Both the position numbers and the translations under genes were made by a program. Below the pieces are notes generated by a model, which did not search any database, was not told the origin of the DNA, and saw only the letters and a list, made by a program, of their open reading frames with translations. DNA of 64,000 nt from an uncultured Chloroflexia bacterium (lineage in GTDB: Bacteria; Chloroflexota; Dehalococcoidia; DSTF01; JALHUB01), in assembly GCA_963703345.1 (NCBI GenBank), contig OY969814.1, positions 288,001-352,000 on the forward strand, read 5' to 3'. Below are positions 22,877 to 64,000 of this stretch, in pieces. Each line of letters begins with the position of its first letter. Within the stretch, counting starts at the first letter, position 1.

Positions 22877-25800
22877 CTAGCGGAAGTTGTGCGCGGGCGG
22901 CGTGACGAGCGACGCCTCGACGCGCAGGGGTGTGAACTTTTCGGCGACAACGTTCAGCGTCCCTTCCCGCTTCTGTAACTTCCCACGCACCAGCAGGAAC
23001 GGCTCCGTCCGGATGACGCTCCGCGACGCGGCGTAAAGCCCCGGCTTAACCACCACATTCGCCAGCCCGAACTCGTCCTCCAGCAGCAGGAAGACGAAGC
23101 CCTTCGCCGTCATGGGGTGCTGGCGGCAGACTACGAGCCCCGCCATATCCACAGTCGCGCCGTCTGCCAGCCTGTCGAGATGCTTGCTGGAAACGACGCC
23201 CTCGTGCAGGGCGCGTCGCACGAAGGCCAGCGGATGGTGGCCGGGCGAGAGGCCCAGGTTCTCATACTCGGCTGCCATGCGCTCCCAGGCCGTCATGTCG
23301 GCCAGCGACACCATGTCCTGCTCGATGGGCAGCGGCAGCGGCATCTGCCTGCCTGCCGGACCGTCGTGCGGGCGGATGACCAACCCCGCCTGCCACATCG
23401 GCGTACGACGATTGGCGACCAGCGCTTCGAAGGCGCCCACCGACGCCAGGTTCTCGACGGCGGTCTGCGGCAGTCGGCTGCGGTTCATAAGCTCCCACAC
23501 CGAGCCGTAGGGCCCGTTGCGCTGCCGCTCCTCTTCGACAGCCTGCGCCGCGCTCTCGCCGATGCCGCGCACGTAGGCGAGGCCCACTCGCACGGCGTCG
23601 CCCTCCGGCCCGTCTTCGACCGTGCAGCGGGCGCCGCTGAGATTGATGTCGGGGTTGAGCACGCCGACGCCGTGTCGTTTGGCGTCGTTGGTGAAGACGT
23701 GCGGCGCGTAGAAGCCCATGGGCTGGGCGTTGAAGAGGGCGCAGTAGAACTCCGCCGGATAGTACTTCTTCAGCCAGGCCGACTGGTAGGCGAGGACGGC
23801 GAAGGCGGCGGAGTGGCTCTTGGGGAAGCCGAACTCGGCGAAACCCAACAGCTTGTCGAAGACCGTCTGCGCCGTCTTCTCGTCGACGCCGCGGGCCAGC
23901 GCGCCTTCGCGGAACTGCTGCCAGAAGCCCTGCATCGCCTCCCGGGAGCGCTTGCGGCTGATGGCGCGTCGGAGGGCCTCCGCCTGGCCGGCGGTAAAGC
24001 CTGCCAGCGCCATCGCGACCTGCAGGACCTGGTCCTGGTAGATCACGACACCCAGCGTGTCTTTGAGGGCGTCCTCCAGCGACGGGTGATCGTAGGTGAC
24101 GGGCTCTTTGCCCTGCTTACGACGCACGAACGGGTTCACCGCCTTGCCGACGATGGGCCCCGGCCGGACGATGGCGACCTCCTGCGTCAGCTCTTCCAGG
24201 GAGCGCGGCTGCGTGCGCGGCAGGAGCTGTATCTGGGCGCGGCTCTCGATCTGGAAGACGCCGATGGTGTCGCCGGCGCAGATCATGTCGTAGACGGCGG
24301 GATCGGTGAAGTCGATGCGGCTGAGGTCGACGCAGCGACCGCGGCGGGCGGCGATGATGTCGATGCAATCCTCGACGAGCGAAAGCATTCCCAGCGCCAG
24401 GAAGTCGATCTTGATCATGCCAGCGTCGTCGACAGAGTCTTTGTCCCACTGGCAGACGTAGCGGCCGGGCATGCCGCCCCTTTCGATGGGCACGAGTTCG
24501 GCGACGGGCTTGGAGGAGATGATCATGCCGCCGACGTGCTGCGAGAGGTGACGCGGCATACCATCGATCTCCGCCGCCAGCGTCACGAGGTCGCGCCAGA
24601 GGAGAGCGCCGGCCTTGCGACTGAACTCCGGCAGCGAAGCCATTTCTTCCGGCAGATGGTGGGCGTGTCGCGCCTCGACGCGTTTCGCCAGCTTGTCGAG
24701 CTCCGCTTCCGGCAGGCCGAGCGCTTTGCCGACATCGCGGACGGCGGAGCGCATCTTGTAGCTGATGATCTCACCGACGAGGGGCGCGTGGTCAGGCCCG
24801 AACTGGTTATGGACGCGCAGGATGAGCGCCTCGCGGATGTCGCGGGCGAAGTCGAGGTCGATGTCCGGGACGGAGGTGCCTTCTTCGTTCAGGAAGCGGC
24901 CGAAGAAGAGGTTGTAGCGCAGCGGGTCGACGTGGGAGAGGCCGATGAGATAGCAGATGAGCGAGCTAACCGAGGAGCCGCGTCCGCGCCCCGGCGGCAG
25001 CCCGGCAAAACTTCGGGGCGAGGCGCCGCGCACCTTCGCCGCCTCCTCGCGCGCCATCTCCAGGAGCTGACGGTAGACAAGGAAGAAGCCGGAGAGGCCG
25101 CGCTTGCGCACCATGCCCAGCTCCTCGCGCAGGCGGGCGTCGACCTCCGGCGTGATGCGTCCGTAGCGCTCACGGGCGGCCTCGCGGCAGATGCGCTCCA
25201 GGTGGGAGTCGACCGTTTCGCCTTCGGGCACCGGGTAGTCGCCCGGACGGGCGCCCGTCGGGGCGGGGAAGGTGTAGCCGAGGTCGCGCGTGAGGTCGAA
25301 GGTGCAGCGCTCGGCGATACGGACGCTGTTGGCGAGGGCATCGGGCCATTCGGCGAAGAGCGCCGCCATCTCTTCGGGCGACTTGAGGTAGTACTCGGAG
25401 TTCTCGCGGCGCAACTGATGCGAGGCGTCGAGCGTCGTGCGGTGGCGGATGGCGACGAGCACGTCCTGGAGTCGATGGCGTTCGCGCAGGTGGTAGTGGA
25501 CGTTGTTGGCGGCGACGCAGCCGAGGCCGAGTCGCTTCGCCAGCGTCGTCAGCGCCCGGTTGCGCTCGCGGTCGCCGTAGACGAGGTTGTTCTGGAACTC
25601 GATCCAGAAGCTCTCCCGGCCGAAGGCATCGACGTAGCGCCGCGCCGCTGCTTCGGCCTCGCGCAGACGTCCGGCAGCAGCGAGCGACGGCACCTCTCCT
25701 CGCTTGCAGCCGGAGAGGGCGATGAGGCCTTCGCTGTGGCGGGCCAGCGTCTCGAAGTCCAACAACGGCTCGCCGCGCTTACCGGACGTGTGGGCGTGTG

Positions 25801-26197
25801 TGAGGAGGAGGCAGAGGTTGGCGTAGCCACGCTGCGACTCGCAGAGGAGGGTCAAATGATTGGTCGGCCACGTCGCACGTCCTTCCCTGGAAGGACTGCT
25901 CGCGGCCCCTTTTCTTTCTATTCTGAGGGGACACCCCTCAGACTCCCCGACAGGGGGCTCTGCCCCCTGTACCCCCGTTGCTCTGAGCGTGACTTCGGCG
26001 CCGGTGATGGGACGGACGCCGAACGCCTTCGCCGTCTGGGCGAACGCCATCGCGCCGTAGAGGCCGTCGTGGTCAGTGAGGGCGAGCGTGTCGTAGCCGA
26101 GCTCGCGGGCGCGGAGTGCCAGCTCCTCGGGAGTGGATGCGCCCTCGCGGAGGGAGTAGCAGGAGTGGCAGTGAAGTTCGACGTACGGCTCAGTCAT
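22877..26197 (-). CDS. dnaE2: Error-prone DNA polymerase III alpha (DnaE2/ImuC) with in-frame insertions
   Basis: ELHCHS PHP domain, GRGSS, PDIDLDF, KIDFLALGML, GFPKSH, QPMGFY, C-terminal AHNFR motif. Confidence 0.96.
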   Translation of the reverse strand: MTEPYVELHCHSCYSLREGASTPEELALRARELGYDTLALTDHDGLYGAMAFAQTAKAFGVRPITGAEVTLRATGVQGAEPPVGESEGCPLRIERKGAASSPSREGRATWPTNHLTLLCESQRGYANLCLLLTHAHTSGKRGEPLLDFETLARHSEGLIALSGCKRGEVPSLAAAGRLREAEAAARRYVDAFGRESFWIEFQNNLVYGDRERNRALTTLAKRLGLGCVAANNVHYHLRERHRLQDVLVAIRHRTTLDASHQLRRENSEYYLKSPEEMAALFAEWPDALANSVRIAERCTFDLTRDLGYTFPAPTGARPGDYPVPEGETVDSHLERICREAARERYGRITPEVDARLREELGMVRKRGLSGFFLVYRQLLEMAREEAAKVRGASPRSFAGLPPGRGRGSSVSSLICYLIGLSHVDPLRYNLFFGRFLNEEGTSVPDIDLDFARDIREALILRVHNQFGPDHAPLVGEIISYKMRSAVRDVGKALGLPEAELDKLAKRVEARHAHHLPEEMASLPEFSRKAGALLWRDLVTLAAEIDGMPRHLSQHVGGMIISSKPVAELVPIERGGMPGRYVCQWDKDSVDDAGMIKIDFLALGMLSLVEDCIDIIAARRGRCVDLSRIDFTDPAVYDMICAGDTIGVFQIESRAQIQLLPRTQPRSLEELTQEVAIVRPGPIVGKAVNPFVRRKQGKEPVTYDHPSLEDALKDTLGVVIYQDQVLQVAMALAGFTAGQAEALRRAISRKRSREAMQGFWQQFREGALARGVDEKTAQTVFDKLLGFAEFGFPKSHSAAFAVLAYQSAWLKKYYPAEFYCALFNAQPMGFYAPHVFTNDAKRHGVGVLNPDINLSGARCTVEDGPEGDAVRVGLAYVRGIGESAAQAVEEERQRNGPYGSVWELMNRSRLPQTAVENLASVGAFEALVANRRTPMWQAGLVIRPHDGPAGRQMPLPLPIEQDMVSLADMTAWERMAAEYENLGLSPGHHPLAFVRRALHEGVVSSKHLDRLADGATVDMAGLVVCRQHPMTAKGFVFLLLEDEFGLANVVVKPGLYAASRSVIRTEPFLLVRGKLQKREGTLNVVAEKFTPLRVEASLVTPPAHNFR
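25241..25264. repeat. 24-nt near-perfect palindrome in frame in dnaE2 (APTGARPG)
   Basis: GCCCGGACGGGCGCCCGTCGGGGC; removal restores YTFP-DYPVPEG. Confidence 0.65.
25863..25979. mobile_element. Family A multi-hairpin MITE/REP-like element inserted in frame in dnaE2
   Basis: Colinear with 27780-27894; hairpins CTGAGGGG-ACA-CCCCTCAG and CAGGGGGC-TCT-GCCCCCTG; adds ~39 aa between GAEVTL and HLTLL. Confidence 0.85.
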
Positions 26198-26444
26198 AGT
26201 CCTGCTTGAACCAGCAGTGGCGGGCGAGGTCGTGATATACGACGAGCGGGCGGCCGTCCTCCAGCAGCAGGCGGTAGTACAGGCGCGAGACCTCCTCCCG
26301 CCACCACTCGTCGTCGATGCGCCAGACGTCCAGCACCTGCGATACCGTCAGCCGCCGGCCCAGGACGACGGCGACAGGCTCACCTGCCTCATCCGTCGCT
26401 ACCGCCAGCGGCCGCGGCTCCTTGAGCGGGCTCAGTCCCGTCAC
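26190..26444 (-). CDS. DUF6504/ImuB C-terminal-like small protein
   Basis: V..V.D.WRIDDEWW....R.YY.L......VYHD....WF; GTG start overlaps the imuB TGA. Confidence 0.85.
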   Translation of the reverse strand: MTGLSPLKEPRPLAVATDEAGEPVAVVLGRRLTVSQVLDVWRIDDEWWREEVSRLYYRLLLEDGRPLVVYHDLARHCWFKQDYD

Positions 26445-27751
26445 GGTTCGTAGTCGATAAGGGCGTGACGCCTCTCCGGCAGTCGCGACCACGGCTCCAC
26501 CTCCACCACCCGCGATATGAGAGGCCGCCCCCAGCGCGCGCGTAGCTGGCGGGCCGTCTCGCCGAGCTGCCGCCGGAGCCCCGCTTTTTCCGCGAACAGC
26601 GTCGACTGGCGGCCGCGCTCCTCCGTTATCCCCGACAGCTCGATCGTCAACTCCTCCACCGGCGCCGGCAGGCAGACGCCCGTGGGAGCGGCGTTCGAGA
26701 GGACGCTTTTGACGATGAACAGCATTCGCTCCCAATCGGTGACGGCTTCATGGAAGGTGAGCGCCTTCTCCCAGCTCCGTCCGCCCCAGAGAGCGGCGCG
26801 CAGACGCAGGCGACGGGCGGCGCGACCGTGCAATCGCCAGTGCAGGCGCACGAGCAGGCGTCGGCAGGCGACGACCAACGCCTCGATGCTGACGGCGGCG
26901 GACGGGAAGCGCAGCGTCTCGCTCAGGAACTCTTCGGGATGTCTTGGGCGTAGCGGCTCGCGGTCGATGCCGCGGGCGAGCTCGTGGAGGCGCTTTCCTT
27001 CGCTGCCGAACTGGGCTTGCAGCGGCCCGGGCGCGAGCATCGCCAGGTCGCCGAGGGTGCGCAGGCCGTACAGGTCGAGGCGTCGCAACGTATCGGCCGA
27101 GGCGACGGAGGCGTTTAATTGACCAATTGAAATCAATTGTTTTTTCGCATTTTTCTGAACCTGGAAAGTGGTCGACTGAATCTGAGAAAAGGTGTCGAAA
27201 TGCGCCAAAAGGGCGACGTCCAGGGGGCACAGGAACTCGGCCTCTTTGCCCTCGGGGACGGTGCATACCTGGCCGGGCCGGCTGGTGACGGCGGCGGTCC
27301 AGGCGACGAATTTGCCTTCCGCTACGCCGACGGCGGTCAGGAGACCGGTTGTCTCACGCAGCGAGCGGACTATCCGCTCTCCCAGGTCCAGCTCGTCTTC
27401 ATAGTGAAGGGCCAGGCCGCCGGCGTTGAGGTAGGCGCGACCGAGAGCGCCGGGCTCGACTTCCGGGCTGAAGGTTTCGAGGACGGCGAGCAGGGAGTCG
27501 AAGACGTCGCTGTAGCGGGAGGGATGCGGCGGCAGGAAGACAGCGTCGCGGCAGAGGGCGAGCGCCGGCCGGAGCGGCATGCCGATGCGAACGCCCTGCG
27601 ATTCGGCTTCGGGCGAGCAGTCGAGGACGGCCTTTCGCTGATCGGGGGTCTCGCCGATTACGAGCGGGCGGCCGCGGAGGGAGGGATCGCGCTGTCGCTC
27701 GACGGCGGTGGGAAAGTGCGGGATGAGGATGCAGGCGATTCGCATGGCCAT
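26441..27751 (-). CDS. imuB: ImuB-like inactive Y-family polymerase with in-frame insertion
   Basis: IMS fold (L.G.PL, CS.EA...GV..GM, SPEVE, LARGID); catalytic D/DE replaced (LIPHF, ALGRAYL); QSTLF clamp motif. Confidence 0.9.
   Translation of the reverse strand: MAMRIACILIPHFPTAVERQRDPSLRGRPLVIGETPDQRKAVLDCSPEAESQGVRIGMPLRPALALCRDAVFLPPHPSRYSDVFDSLLAVLETFSPEVEPGALGRAYLNAGGLALHYEDELDLGERIVRSLRETTGLLTAVGVAEGKFVAWTAAVTSRPGQVCTVPEGKEAEFLCPLDVALLAHFDTFSQIQSTTFQVQKNAKKQLISIGQLNASVASADTLRRLDLYGLRTLGDLAMLAPGPLQAQFGSEGKRLHELARGIDREPLRPRHPEEFLSETLRFPSAAVSIEALVVACRRLLVRLHWRLHGRAARRLRLRAALWGGRSWEKALTFHEAVTDWERMLFIVKSVLSNAAPTGVCLPAPVEELTIELSGITEERGRQSTLFAEKAGLRRQLGETARQLRARWGRPLISRVVEVEPWSRLPERRHALIDYEP
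27119..27216. mobile_element. Family B AT-rich element inserted in frame in imuB
   Basis: TTGACCAATTGAAATCAATTGTTTTTT...GAAATGCGCCAAAAGGGCGA aligns by eye with 60755-60855. Confidence 0.8.
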
Positions 27752-27779: not shown

Positions 27780-27894
27780 GTCGGCCACGTCGCACGCCCG
27801 CCGGGGGCGGGACGGCTCGCGGCCTCTTTTTTTGAATCTGGGGGGACACCCCCCAGGCCCTCCGTCAGGGGGCTCTGCCCCCTGTACCCCCGTT
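27780..27894. mobile_element. Family A element in the 5' leader of the imuB operon
   Basis: GTCGGCCACGTCGCACG...CAGGGGGCTCTGCCCCCTGTACCCCCGTT shared with the dnaE2 copy. Confidence 0.85.
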
Positions 27895-27930
27895 TATGGA
27901 ATTCCTTAGTGACTGTAAGATACAGAATGC

Positions 27931-27960
27931 ATAATAGAACACATGTGCTGGCTTTGTCAA
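27931..27960 (-). promoter_or_regulatory. Sigma70 promoter with overlapping LexA (SOS) box
   Basis: Minus strand TTGACA-N18-TATTAT; AGAAC-ACAT-GTGCT at 27936-27949 (one mismatch to AGAAC-N4-GTTCT). Confidence 0.8.
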
Positions 27961-59514: not shown

Positions 59515-60753
59515 TTGGAACAACCCTCTCCGACGTTTGACGACCTGAGGCTGGAGCCGTCGCCGGTGCCGGGCGTGAGCCGCAACGTTTTCGTGCTGGG
59601 GCTCGTGAGCCTGGCCACGGACGTCGCCAGCGAGATGCTCTATCCGCTGATCCCCATCTTCCTGACCGTCACGCTCGGCGCTCCGGTGGCGGCGCTGGGC
59701 GTTATCGAGGGGATCGCTGAGGGCACGGCCAGCCTCATGAAGGTCGGGTCGGGCTGGTATTCGGACCGACTTTCGATGCGCAGGCCGCTGGTCGCGGCGG
59801 GGTACGCGCTGTCGGCAATCGGCAAGGTGTTGCTGGCGACGGCGTTCCACTGGCCGCAGGTGCTCGTCGCCCGCACCGTCGACCGGTTCGGCAAGGGCGT
59901 GCGCACCTCGCCGCGCGACGCCCTCATTGCCGATTCCGCCCTTCCCGAGACATACGGGCGAGCGTTCGGCTTCCATCGGGCGGCGGACACGGCGGGAGCG
60001 GTGCTGGGGCCGCTGATCGGCCTGGCGATACTGGAGATCGTCGGTCAGAACCACTTGAGACCAGTGCTGCTCGCCGCGACCGTGCCCGGCGTGCTCAGCG
60101 TCGGGCTGCTGGCTTTCGTGAAGGAGCGGCGTCGCGAGCCGAAGCCGGTCGAAAGCGGCGCCGAGAGGCCGAAAATCGACCTGTCGGGCGCGAGTCCCGT
60201 GTTCTGGATTTTCCTGAGCATCAGTCTCCTCTTCGCGCTGGGCAACTCCAGCGACACCTTCCTCATCCTGAGGGCGAAAGACCTGGGGCTGAGCCTGGCG
60301 GTCGTCATCCTGCTGTATGTGCTGTACAACGCGAGCTACAGCCTGCTGTCGCTGCCGGCGGGCATCGTCGCGGACCGGGCGGGAAAGCGGCGGCTGGTGA
60401 CGGGCGGCTTCTTCGTCTACGGGCTGGTGTATATGGGGTTCGCGCTGGCTGGCCAGGGGAGCTCGCTGTGGCCGCTGTTCCTGGTCTACGGCGTGTACAT
60501 GGCGTTCACGGACGGCATGGCGCGGGCGATGGTGGCGGAGCTATCGCCGGAGGAGCGTCGGGGGACGTTTCTGGGGCTGTACCACACGGGCATCGGGCTG
60601 ATGGCGGTGGCGGCGAGCGTGCTGGCGGGGGTGCTGTGGGACGTCGTTGGGAAGCCAGCGCCGTTCTGGCTGGGCGCGTCGACGGGGTTTGCGGCGGCGG
60701 CACTCATGCTGGCGCTGCCGGGAGGGCGCTCATCAGCACGGGCGGACGTGTGA
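59515..60753 (+). CDS. MFS transporter
   Basis: D..SEM.YP, G.IEG.AE, SDR, DR.GKG.R..PRDA, AFGFHRA.D. Confidence 0.94.
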   Translation: MEQPSPTFDDLRLEPSPVPGVSRNVFVLGLVSLATDVASEMLYPLIPIFLTVTLGAPVAALGVIEGIAEGTASLMKVGSGWYSDRLSMRRPLVAAGYALSAIGKVLLATAFHWPQVLVARTVDRFGKGVRTSPRDALIADSALPETYGRAFGFHRAADTAGAVLGPLIGLAILEIVGQNHLRPVLLAATVPGVLSVGLLAFVKERRREPKPVESGAERPKIDLSGASPVFWIFLSISLLFALGNSSDTFLILRAKDLGLSLAVVILLYVLYNASYSLLSLPAGIVADRAGKRRLVTGGFFVYGLVYMGFALAGQGSSLWPLFLVYGVYMAFTDGMARAMVAELSPEERRGTFLGLYHTGIGLMAVAASVLAGVLWDVVGKPAPFWLGASTGFAAAALMLALPGGRSSARADV

Positions 60754-60754
60754 T

Positions 60755-60855
60755 TTGACCATTTGAATTCAATTGTTTTTCGTCGGTGTATGCGAATCTG
60801 AGCGAAGGCGACGTGAATGTGAGAAATTGCGCGAAATGCCGTCGAAAAAGGGCGA
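60755..60855. mobile_element. Intergenic family B AT-rich element
   Basis: TTGACCATTTGAATTCAATTGTTTTT...GAAATGCCGTCGAAAAAGGGCGA, homologous to the imuB insert. Confidence 0.78.
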
Positions 60856-61037
60856 AACTGGTGCAACAGGGCGCGGATGCGTCGAGGCGGGCGGCTGAGG
60901 GCGGGCAAGTGGAATCGAGTTGGCATTATGGGGTCATAATAGCAGAGGGAGGCGCCGGTCTGTAAGGCGGATGTGGCACCCGGCAGCATGGTGCCCTCAC
61001 TTATCCGCTCTTCACCACCCGACACATGCTGTCCTGC

Positions 61038-61829
61038 TCAACCTTCCTTTGGCTTCTTTGGCAGAAGGTACTGTACCAGGATAGGTTCAAACCTGAGTGT
61101 TCTCGGCATGACAGCGGACAGCCAGGACAGCAGATCGTACAATACAGAATCCGACTTCCGCACGACCCACCCTGGCACCGATTTACAATCTGAGCGCGCG
61201 AACTTCAATGTCCCTTCTCCATCCCCGAAATTCATGACCGAGCCAGCCCCCACGACAAAGAACGCGTCCGCGAGTCGGTTCTGCTCCACTGCATGCGCCC
61301 TCTCAAACTCAACGATCCTAGAATGAATGGTCGGAGGGCTCAATTGAGACTCAAACGCTATCAAGAACCAAGGCGGGCATCTGTAGAATCGCGCCATGTC
61401 TGAAGGATTCGTGTGTATCATCTCACCAACGCTATGGCGCGTCTCAAGTTTCTTGAAAACAAGGGAACTGGTGAGGGCACTCTCCAATCCATCGCTTGTC
61501 AGAATCGCCTTCACTTCGCCAGCGGCGGAGACACCTTCGATAAAGAACAGTCCAGGCAGGTCCGCCGTAAACGTGAACGGATGATCTTCGTTCGCTACAA
61601 CAACGTCCGTCTGCTTCGATCTGTGACCCTCACTATCAATGACCTCGCCCTGGCCTACTTGTAAGCGACGCGGCAAGTAGAGGCGCAGGAATGACCTGAA
61701 AGCCTCTTCAACGGCTGTCCCTTTGTCCCCGCCTTGCGCAAATGTGGCCCGAGCTTCCTTGAGTTTCGCCATCATCTGAACCTCGACGGCCCGTATCTTG
61801 TCTTTCAGGAACCCAGCATCCATCATCAT
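61038..61829 (-). CDS. DUF6602 domain (PD-(D/E)XK-like) protein
   Basis: G...E...R.FL..YLP....GQG.VIDS.G..S.Q.D.VV ... E.V.A..EVK..L; AT-richer than flanks. Confidence 0.8.
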   Translation of the reverse strand: MMMDAGFLKDKIRAVEVQMMAKLKEARATFAQGGDKGTAVEEAFRSFLRLYLPRRLQVGQGEVIDSEGHRSKQTDVVVANEDHPFTFTADLPGLFFIEGVSAAGEVKAILTSDGLESALTSSLVFKKLETRHSVGEMIHTNPSDMARFYRCPPWFLIAFESQLSPPTIHSRIVEFERAHAVEQNRLADAFFVVGAGSVMNFGDGEGTLKFARSDCKSVPGWVVRKSDSVLYDLLSWLSAVMPRTLRFEPILVQYLLPKKPKEG

Positions 61830-62056
61830 GATCGCTCCTGCGCTATACGCTGTGCCCGAAGAGCCCCAAAAGCGTTGTCGGGACCGCGCCGCCCAAGATC
61901 CACGCGGCCTCAGTCCCCCCGGCGAAGCGGCGGGTATTCGTCCGTCAGGCCCACGAGGAAGGCTTTGACACGCGCTTGCCACCGCAGCCACCCGTCCACG
62001 AGCCCGTAACGCGTGCCGGCTTTGGACGCAGCTACGGGTTGCGGTGAAGGGTGTCG

Positions 62057-62986
62057 CTAGCCCTGGTCGAGGATAGCCTTTATCTCGGCGGCGTAAGTCG
62101 CGCTCTCCTCGTCGTCGGTGACCAGCTCGATGTCCAGCGGCGAGCTCACGCCCAGCCCCAGCTCAACGGCCCGGGCGATCTGCTCCTGCTGGAAGATGGG
62201 CCCCTGGCTCACCTCAGGGGTCGTGCCCCAGCGACGGAGCAGGGCCACACCGACGGCGTCCATCGCCACCCGGTCGGTCCCCGCCAGGAACACCTGTGTA
62301 TCGACTCTAGTACCCTCGGACGGCCCTCCGGTTGTAAAGGCCACCAAGCCGTCCATCACGATCAGCTTCGGCTCGTAGGTAGTGTTGATCTCAGCCACCA
62401 TAGAGCGCATGTGCGGGCCCTGCGCCCCCGGCCCGCCGTGGAGATCGCCCATGTAGTTGTGGGACCCGTCCGGCAACTGGAGCGCCACCAACCCCACCGC
62501 CAGCTTTAGAGACAGGGTAAAGTGGCCCAAGAAATGTGTCTTCAGATTGCAGGTCGAGACGACCGCATCGACCTCTGAGAGGAGGCGAGGTACGGAGAAC
62601 CCTTCCGGCCAGTGACTGCCCTCGAAGTCCACCTTCCGCCAACCGTCCATATCCAAATCATCAAAGTCGAGGGTCTCGAAGCCCATCTCCTTCGCCATGT
62701 CATGGATGCCAAATGCGGCCATGATCTGCTTGGCGGGCTGCCGGCCCTGACCACCGAATCCACTTCGCTCGCCTAGCGTGATCTGCGTTGCTCCCGAATC
62801 CTTGACAACCTCCATGACAGCGCGAAGCGTGTCCGGGTGGGTGGACGCCGGGGAAGGGTCTGCGGTGTTGAAGTTCGGCTTGACGAGCACGCGGGAGCCG
62901 CTAAGACCGTTGGGCTTCAGCAGATTGACAGCGCGGCGAACGCCGTCTCGGCGAGTCTTCGCTTTGATGAATGAAATCTTTGACAC
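62057..62986 (-). CDS. DUF362 domain protein
   Basis: VLVKPNFN.AD..P.STH, LKTH, FTLSLK..VG, GGP, DRVA.D. Confidence 0.88.
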   Translation of the reverse strand: MSKISFIKAKTRRDGVRRAVNLLKPNGLSGSRVLVKPNFNTADPSPASTHPDTLRAVMEVVKDSGATQITLGERSGFGGQGRQPAKQIMAAFGIHDMAKEMGFETLDFDDLDMDGWRKVDFEGSHWPEGFSVPRLLSEVDAVVSTCNLKTHFLGHFTLSLKLAVGLVALQLPDGSHNYMGDLHGGPGAQGPHMRSMVAEINTTYEPKLIVMDGLVAFTTGGPSEGTRVDTQVFLAGTDRVAMDAVGVALLRRWGTTPEVSQGPIFQQEQIARAVELGLGVSSPLDIELVTDDEESATYAAEIKAILDQG

Positions 62987-63019
62987 TTTTCGCCTCGCTT
63001 TCTGCGGTGGCAGTCGCCG

Positions 63020-64000
63020 CTATGGGTCGCGGAGGACGGCGCCGGTGCTGGCGCTGGTCACTAGCGAGGCGTAGCGGCGCAGCCAGCGACTCGGCAGGTC
63101 ACGCTTGGGCGCCTTCGCCTCCGTGAGGCGCCACGCTATCTCCGCGTCCGACAGGTTGACGTCCAGACGGTGGTTCGGGATGTCGATGCTTATCGCGTCG
63201 CCGTCGCGCAGGGCGGCGATGGGCCCGCCGGCCGCCGCTTCCGGCGAGACGTGGCCGATGCAGCAGCCGTGGCTGCCGCCGGAGAAACGACCGTCGGTTA
63301 TCAGCGCCACCTTGTCGCCGAGGCCGCGCCCGACGATGTTCGCGGTCGGGGCGAGCATCTCCTGCATGCCGGGGCCGCCCTTCGGACCCTCGTAGCGGAT
63401 GACGACGACGTCGCCGTCCTTCACGTCGCCGCGCAGGACTGCGGCCGCCGCGTCCTCCTGCGACTCGTAGACACGCGCCGGCCCTTCGAAAACGAGCATC
63501 GACGGCTCGACGGCGCCGGACTTGACGACCGCGCCCTCCGGCGCCAGGTTGCCGAAGAGCACCGCCAGACCGCCGCTCTCGCTGAAGGGGCGCTCCAGCG
63601 GGCGTATGACTTCATCGTCGCGGATGACGGCGCCGGCGACGTTCTCGCCGAGGGTCTTCAGGGTGACGGTGATGCGGTCGGGGTCGAGGAGGCCGGGCTT
63701 GCGGCTGATCTCGTTGAGAATCGCGCTCACGCCGCCGGCGCGGTCGACGTCCTCAACGTGGACGATGTTTGCCGGCGCGACCTTGCAGATGTAGGGGACG
63801 CGCGCGGCGAGCTCGTTGATGCGCTGGAGCGGATAGTCGACGCCGCCCTCGTGGGCCAGGGCGAGAGCGTGGAGGACGGTGTTCGTGGAGCCGCCCATCG
63901 CCATGTCGAGGGCGAAGGCGTTGTCGAGCGACTGCGGCGTGACGAGCCGGCTGGGCCTGAGATCGGCCTCCAGCAGCTTCATCACCTGGTAGGCCGACTG
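63020..64000 (-). CDS. ilvD: Dihydroxy-acid dehydratase (3' part; 5' end outside the window)
   Basis: MGGSTN..LH, GNLAP.GAVVK, RYEGPKGGPGM.EML, TDGRFSG, GHVSPEA. Confidence 0.97.
   Translation of the reverse strand, partial: QSAYQVMKLLEADLRPSRLVTPQSLDNAFALDMAMGGSTNTVLHALALAHEGGVDYPLQRINELAARVPYICKVAPANIVHVEDVDRAGGVSAILNEISRKPGLLDPDRITVTLKTLGENVAGAVIRDDEVIRPLERPFSESGGLAVLFGNLAPEGAVVKSGAVEPSMLVFEGPARVYESQEDAAAAVLRGDVKDGDVVVIRYEGPKGGPGMQEMLAPTANIVGRGLGDKVALITDGRFSGGSHGCCIGHVSPEAAAGGPIAALRDGDAISIDIPNHRLDVNLSDAEIAWRLTEAKAPKRDLPSRWLRRYASLVTSASTGAVLRDP

Follow-up and report, generated by a model that had tools for sequence, protein, structure and literature searches.

An insert in frame within imuB

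How does AT-rich DNA come to be translated, in frame, in the midst of a GC-rich gene, and from what sort of unit did it come? The question is raised by imuB, which occupies positions 26441-27745 (minus strand) of the window, the whole stretch of 64,000 nucleotides analysed here, which is 288001-352000 of the genome that we call G000. The gene codes for a Y-family-like accessory subunit (Pfam IMS, E 2.5e-30; start codon set by homologs) and sits upstream of a dnaE2-like polymerase gene (22877-26197). Alignment shows that this protein has other residues in place of the acidic catalytic motif of DNA polymerase IV. Upstream of imuB stands a LexA-like box (27936-27949), a host feature that was matched to the box upstream of the genome's lexA-like gene. 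The consensus used for it, as for the element and head-operon boxes discussed below, is one that we presume to be that of LexA-like sites.

An earlier note, made from the letters of the window, had described within this gene an AT-rich patch with an intergenic twin, and had taken the pair for a mobile family. The patch is translated as claimed: the peptide AHFDTFSQIQSTTFQVQKNAKKQLISIGQL, encoded by window 27116-27205 (minus strand), lies within the open reading frame, and the GC content of the patch is 0.41, against 0.70 across the remainder of imuB. The span given for it, 27119-27216, captured a real patch, but the alignment of filled with empty alleles sets the insert at about 27105-27203, one of several equivalent placements. 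This makes 99 nt, exactly 33 codons, as seen in 24 aligned ImuB proteins, 5 with the loop and 19 without it, so that an empty site does exist. ImuB was matched in 40 of the 41 genomes searched, in one piece in G000 and four genomes of the same genus, while the match breaks at the loop in the others. The expectation that homologs would lack the loop is thus right for most of them and wrong for these four: the five inserts form a single clade (support 100/99, in a tree built on 46 of the 76 copies collected below), and the loop of the five genomes is, as the sequences place it, the outcome of one ancestral insertion. Because a metagenome contig from another study (X4) carries the insert, it is no assembly artefact; this contig spans imuB and displays frame-restoring 1-nt indels.

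Considered as DNA, the insert contains one end of a larger element, End1, with about 9 nt of outer flank; the promoter end of the element, End2, is absent. The End1 terminus (27114-27124, plus strand) follows the family consensus TTTGATTGACC. Next to it is a palindrome with the core TTGA-WW-TCAA (27124-27139), putatively a protein-binding site, the pairing of the core being conserved across copies, and then come two quasi-palindromic boxes of the GAATCTG type, 21 bp apart (27155-27184, plus strand), a spacing that is constant across the family. The inner junction was placed at 27204-27213 by aligning the empty alleles of seven relatives with the filled one: host Leu-Leu-Pro codons appear to be replaced there by element-like sequence, at a microhomology of 7 positions in 10. 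The outer junction falls at a 7-bp match. As aligned, these joints fit a short double-microhomology patch, not the transposition of a whole unit. As for the donor, the flank of the insert resembles that of the copy at G000:2228626; the tree instead places the insert beside two copies from another site (96/93, again on 46 of 76 rows).

What the protein makes of these 33 codons is indicated by the AlphaFold model, where they form a low-confidence loop between two thumb-region helices (pLDDT below 50 at residues 187-212): the insert is predicted to occupy a disordered thumb loop. A Pfam search found no splicing domain in it. Within the insert, dN/dS is at least 0.59 in 7 of the 10 allele pairs and 0.07-0.26 in the other 3; it is 0.07-0.16 elsewhere in imuB. 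The columns of the family motifs are less variable than the rest (6 of 36 vs 26 of 63, p 0.014), and none of the 15 core positions of the palindrome varies among the five alleles. Such low variation of the motif columns could reflect selection at the DNA level, protein constraint or conversion.

In-frame repeat insertions are already known (PMC10969869), and the imuB insert alone is of modest interest for this reason. Like the Rickettsia palindromic elements treated there, it is a repeat tolerated in a protein loop; unlike them, it represents one truncated, one-end insertion among some 37 sites, not routine coding insertions, and their long conserved hairpin is absent here. Smaller events also mark the same gene. 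Tiny in-frame ImuB inserts of 5-7 codons, made of another short repeat, are seen at window ~26664-26680 (L004, L014, L016, L017), at sites that differ between genomes, and 13-nt versions of that repeat lie inside two End1 copies.

An element with two unlike ends

The likeness between the imuB patch and its twin (27119-27216 and 60755-60855) is well above chance: the alignment scores 62, a value reached by none of 5000 dinucleotide shuffles (maximum 32) and by none of 222 AT-rich genomic windows (maximum 24), and BLASTN gives 74% identity over 104 columns. The family goes beyond these two copies, however. BLASTN combined with a profile (12 of whose 13 matches in G000 were training rows) finds 13 copies of End1 in G000 and 0 in the reversed genome, and a second subtype contributes 6 more, bringing the total to about 20 elements. 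A pattern search places End1 in G000, in 8 of 8 genomes of the same genus and in 1 further genome of the family, and finds it absent from the other 31. We collected 76 copies in 10 genomes, at 36 sites besides imuB; here as throughout, counts over relatives are counts over kin, which are not independent. Mobility, understood as gain at numerous sites, is therefore borne out. So is the distinctness of this family from the GC-rich palindromic repeat at 25860 and 27780, with which there are no cross-hits. The two copies of that repeat (window 25860-25980 and 27780-27895) are 82% alike, one in frame in the dnaE2-like gene and the other upstream of imuB.

The earlier note's unit of about 98 nt turned out to be one end of an element of 130-700 bp. 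Information content in the End1 consensus drops outside position -5 (36 site representatives), which gives a sharp edge. The palindrome that had been reported in both copies is complete, at 16 bp, in the imuB copy only, one arm of the twin being mismatched; what the copies have in common is the 10-bp core, the pairs of which are conserved in 62-64 of 64 distinct copies, while the outer arms decay. Among the 76 copies examined, two boxes were detected in 55, and their spacing is 21 in all 55. The distance between the terminus and the first box, by contrast, varies by 1-2 nt, so that the reading frame is not kept, and the box pair is inverted between the End1 subtypes.

Might these units be small RNAs or peptides, for instance a type I toxin-antitoxin unit whose tail would work at one of these two levels? 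In a short copy, a promoter is followed by 100-250 nt, and many such copies contain an ATG. Yet the family has no conserved RNA fold: the mean z-score is 0.05 on both strands (28 of 55 copies tested), the consensus folds at -0.5 kcal/mol, no conserved hairpin is found beyond the palindrome, and an Rfam covariance-model search of 60600-61200 returned 0 matches at E up to 5. Folded singly, 2 of 4 copies beat their shuffles (z -2.9 and -2.1), unlike the family as a whole. With a frame that shifts and boxes that invert, we hold this reading to be very unlikely. Peptide-level conservation of the End1 tail was rejected on the frame, and RNA structure as its function on the missing fold and Rfam match. 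In the absence of conserved fold, Rfam match or frame, the constraint on End1 presumably acts on double-stranded DNA, and the palindrome, with its invariant core, behaves as the DNA-level binding site that had been supposed. The TTGACC hexamer did not hold up as a promoter: by eye, no -10 hexamer is present at 16-18 bp in the copies listed. A promoter-like motif is found at the opposite end, facing End1.

This opposite end, End2, is the second sharp end of the element. Situated 130-700 bp from End1, it was found in 53 of the 76 copies and reads, towards End1, GTGHCRY, 7 bp, a -35-like hexamer, 16-18 bp and a -10-like hexamer; the End2 profile was trained on the copies that it found, and its informative part is the absence of further strong matches. 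The interval between the two ends is taken up by a short variable stretch or by one gene, for a protein of 93-122 aa that begins MPRGG and contains GAPKGNLNA. Copies come full, internally deleted or gene-less, and as one of them retains only the end of the gene, we see here a series of internal deletions. The small protein is present in 32 of 61 relatives (a tally in which the unpublished genome G045 counts as one row) and in 29 of 151 genomes of the class (Dehalococcoidia, a name that comes from the source labels of homologous proteins), with at least 29 matches in a single one, G100. Three records (L117, L126, P0122) show the small gene continuing, without a change of frame, into a B12-binding host gene downstream.

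The same plan extends over the class. Around 43 loci of the small gene, the End2 motif is upstream in 22 (opposite strand, 4) and the CAATCA motif of End1 downstream in 30 (opposite strand, 3). When spacings of 10-99 nt between End1 boxes are considered, shorter ones being left aside, 28 of 31 lie no more than 2 nt from a multiple of 10.5, for a baseline of 0.43, as do 13 of the 16 distinct values. The boxes at the 3' end of the small gene are, on these spacings, helically phased across the class. The elements of G100 follow this plan, with box spacings of 63, 30 and 30. Many small-protein matches of that genome (L218, L244-L257) are frameshifted and invaded by other repeats, and a LexA-like box is seen in the promoter.

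There are no terminal inverted repeats, the End1 and End2 consensus sharing only a terminal TG...CA; there is no target-site duplication, the best of 80 offset and length settings being 2 bp in 4 of 28 sites, with the others at shuffle level; and integrase, att sites and replication module are absent, full copies having the single gene of 93-122 aa between their ends.

Constant flanks and changing cargo

The twin illustrates how elements are placed. It is a complete short element without gene (60751-60979, minus strand), with both ends present, and its terminus touches or overlaps the TGA stop codon of an MFS gene (59515-60753). Its End1 covers 60763-60821 (palindrome core 60763-60772; boxes 60792-60800 and 60813-60821), and its End2, recognized by the promoter-like motif GTGHCRY-N7-(-35)-N16/18-(-10), covers 60935-60979 (minus strand), facing End1. 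Beyond End2 comes variable cargo (61038-62986, minus strand), a DUF6602 gene with a GC content of 0.56 and a DUF362 gene, at a place where relatives differ; the DUF6602 gene is the AT-richer block which had been seen, rightly, beside the twin. Other DNA directly follows the MFS gene in 5 of 5 relatives examined. Taken as a whole, the hotspot from the MFS gene to the next conserved gene (window 60753-63020; L061-L065) holds different DNA in each of five relatives, and one relative retains there only the first 11 bases of End1.

The two sides of the elements differ in general. The End1 flank is conserved host DNA, which maps to G000 for 57 of 59 copies from relatives; the End2 side is variable, the same site carrying different genes in different relatives, and some elements sit without any cargo. 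In 16 of 18 G000 elements the DNA beyond End2 has a lower GC content than that beyond End1, an asymmetry that is absent in G100 (4 of 9). No shared motif was found at the far ends of the cargo. A host stop codon is touched or overlapped by the terminus at 5 of the 36 sites. Two sites were compared in five relatives each: the stop is TGA or TAA in filled alleles and TAG in element-free ones, and at one of the two a single stop codon is taken by different subtypes from one genome to another. One locus displays End1, End2 and cargo, followed by a second element without End1. Host gene names such as thrC, fusA, dprA, pccB and ftsK are our own reading of translated sequences; those given here with a profile match come from the match. 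At G000:C1:83860-84134, End2 abuts a 3' tRNA fragment and three terminus-like motifs follow one another on the End1 side.

Which known mobile elements behave in this way? As in the prokaryotic MITEs (PMC10969869), the copies are short, dispersed, intergenic and non-autonomous, with a series of internal deletions; unlike MITEs, they have asymmetric ends, neither terminal inverted repeats nor target duplication, and cargo on one side. IS200/IS605 elements and PATEs are set apart by their enzymes (2 of 5 genomes have a Y1 transposase, not bounded by these ends, and 0 of 5 have TnpB) and by subterminal hairpins, none of which is conserved here. Likewise, the DEDD recombinase of IS110, found in 2 of 5 genomes, has no End1/End2 pair around it. 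IS91 and ISCR have a fixed end downstream of their gene, variable DNA upstream and no target duplication, just as here; the present element differs by lacking both a HUH/Y2 transposase and a recurring terminator motif at the far end.

This geometry underlies a rival explanation, namely that the element, transposable or integrative, is non-autonomous and mobilised in trans, either one-ended in the manner of IS91/ISCR or by a tyrosine or serine recombinase, with the small protein as accessory DNA-binding factor and End1 as origin or att end. Sharp ends, a gene that points at the fixed end with cargo upstream, and related copies that share up to 89% identity at separate sites of G013 would all be natural for such an element, which would moreover need no host capsid. 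Tyrosine and serine recombinases are on hand in 5 of 5 genomes. G000 has a short resolvase-domain gene at C1:1825807-1826358 and, at 1655794-1657206, a serine-recombinase-like gene of 471 aa whose codon use is host-like; matches similar to this pair occur in all five genomes searched. The ends and the cargo speak otherwise, showing neither target duplication nor inverted ends nor a motif at the far end, and 0 of 18 loci of such enzymes are flanked by both ends. No autonomous partner emerged among the Y1, TnpB, IS110 and tyrosine/serine recombinase loci examined. The search for a Y2 HUH transposase gave 0 of 5 genomes, its control being likewise silent, and the element's own protein has no domain of that type. 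Since movement in trans also leaves unexplained the promoter discussed in the next section, we place this account on the unlikely side.

A promoter-like motif shared with phage-head genes

G000 has resident phage-head genes, namely capsid and portal (profile matches) and terminase-like genes, and these have the promoter motif of the elements and LexA-like boxes in common. They are found at G000:C1:616820-622548 and 643299-646770 (L197, L177), with a capsid, a scaffold-like protein, a portal, a terminase-like protein and a small HTH gene. The large-terminase gene, terL, is split by frameshifts in G000, and the portal gene is interrupted too. A capsid was found in 50 of 61 genomes (G045 included); the gene was not found in G003 (95% complete), G004, G005 and G006 (92%), all of which bear elements, nor was terL in G006.

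The End2-type promoter pattern, written after both element ends and head-operon promoters had been seen, has 20 sites in G000 vs 9 in the reversed genome. Of these 20, 11 belong to element ends, 3 are promoters of head operons, 2 precede unassigned genes and 4 are likely background. The motif precedes the scaffold/capsid genes at 8 of 10 loci by pattern, one-base variants being seen by eye at the other 2, and the terminase operon in 3 of 3 relatives with upstream DNA to examine. A LexA-like box stands at or near the -10 hexamer of the head-operon promoters and of 3 of 18 element promoters of G000 (box starting GAAC). No End1-like site was found in the native packaging operons. Two genes behind the same promoter motif lie at G000:C1:663814-664381 and 1190447-1191495; the latter has a lysin-like look but no Pfam match, and like the former it is given no assignment.

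A shared promoter is just what would be left by decaying front ends of a phage late operon, promoter and remains of terS, that ordinary recombination had carried into tolerant hotspots. The repeats would then be passive, or regulatory (sinks for the activator of the head genes, or mobile promoters), and End1 an operator. Many copies are indeed deleted or frameshifted, the promoter faces a host gene or tRNA at 7 of the 13 G000 sites of the family to which the imuB insert belongs, and most copies appear old and inherited in place, mean identity being 0.75 at the same site vs 0.59 at different sites. Remnants would hardly be expected, by contrast, to keep the box spacing of End1 exact and its helical phase class-wide, to bear an End1 that native operons do not have, or to show one-sided cargo in G000, and the host genes facing elements appear, by eye, to retain their own -10 motifs. 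We regard such a passive origin as unlikely.

The nature of the small protein is of importance at this point. Its match to the profile NF040601 has an E value of 5e-6 and 26 bits, for a cut-off of 120, and 27 of 64 members match phrog_1889. The likeness to terminases is a motif of about 30 residues, 30 columns being aligned with a terminase-type profile, so that the protein is best described as terminase-small-subunit-like by motif only, below the family cut-off. In 7 of 18 viral loci the gene with this motif immediately precedes an ORF that resembles a large terminase, one case being confirmed by Pfam; a related gene occurs in a phage contig without adjacent terL. A crude terL pattern picked out 1 of the 43 small-gene loci, one whose reading frame continues into a host gene. 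No match was seen between the small protein and the host's own terS-like protein. A fold search against viral structures, made with a weak model (pTM 0.37), gave no match at E <0.001, and in the ESM Atlas all clusters above 0.9 are unnamed, a terminase cluster at 0.80 being a lead only. No catalytic fusion was seen among 47 longer matches, and the small-protein profile matches 928 clusters at 50% identity, which may include true terminases.

The account that we rate highest, tentatively, is that the element is a minimal packaging parasite with End1 as pac-like site, the imuB insert being an End1-only microhomology patch. A promoter common to phage-head genes, together with a gene bearing a phage-packaging motif, makes us think that it spreads by hijacking virus-like DNA packaging. 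The small protein would be made when head genes switch on; it would bind End1 and recruit the large terminase, and packaging would proceed from End1 through the element, then into the cargo. In the recipient, the far side would recombine by homology and the End1 end would be joined by microhomology, a joint that would account for the position of End1 against host stop codons and for replacement at the same sites. The imuB insert would be a short patch of such DNA, held by two microhomologies and tolerated as a disordered loop, with boxes that are possibly still selected as DNA. Where the capsid is absent, other phages could act as helpers. We counted in favour of the packaging reading the shared head-gene promoter, the terminase-type profile matches of the small protein, the End1 and End2 motifs across the class, the phasing, the one-sided cargo, the variation pattern of the imuB insert and a parallel with SaPIs, and against it a likeness at motif level, carriers without capsid, the split terL of G000, the lack of native End1, the phage contig in which terL is not adjacent, the GC content in G100, the scarcity of LexA-like boxes in G000 element promoters and the elements that have no cargo.

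The parallel deserves detail. Operon I of SaPIs is LexA-regulated and encodes terS (PMC3152322), and lateral transduction mobilises hotspot genes downstream of pac sites (PMC12829572). Like SaPIs and PICIs, our element has a gene with a small-terminase-type motif outside a phage, with SOS-like control in some copies (PMC3152322), and variable genes on one side of a candidate packaging start (PMC12829572). Unlike them, it measures 130-700 bp instead of many kilobases, lacks integrase, replication and repressor genes, is dispersed in about 20 copies per genome, has the promoter of resident head genes, and resembles terminases by one motif. The route proposed for the End1 joints is that of homology-facilitated illegitimate recombination, in which one side of the incoming DNA recombines by homology and the other is joined by microhomology (PMC6382021); it is described there for transformation in other phyla and is inferred here. 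Among the families compared (MITE, IS200/605, IS110, PICI), the element appears to fit none, and would work most like a stripped-down PICI. A literature search, covering listings and the openings of abstracts, brought up nothing on it, and sequence look-ups for the family also came back empty.

Pushed further, to a form that we hold doubtful, the argument would make of it class-wide selfish DNA without transposase, integrase or replicase: a phage-late promoter, a terminase-like adaptor of 100 residues and a phased pac-like site, plugged into a domesticated, gene-transfer-agent-like phage-head system, marking where packaging of the chromosome starts, creating and restocking accessory-gene hotspots, with the imuB copy as a packaging site kept alive in coding sequence. 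If End1 is a packaging start, this would explain how accessory and defence-type genes reach hotspots without integrase or transposase, and the 20 or so predicted sites would help to tell if a functional gene transfer agent is built from the resident phage-head genes; the hypothetical proteins of a large family would also gain a function. Even on weaker readings, we have in the imuB allele a clean and dated example of dispersed-element DNA turned protein.

We end with an island of G000 (C1:2261866-2266418, L176) that contains an integrase, a ParB-methyltransferase and a terminase of 658 aa. The N-terminus of this terminase resembles the element's small protein.
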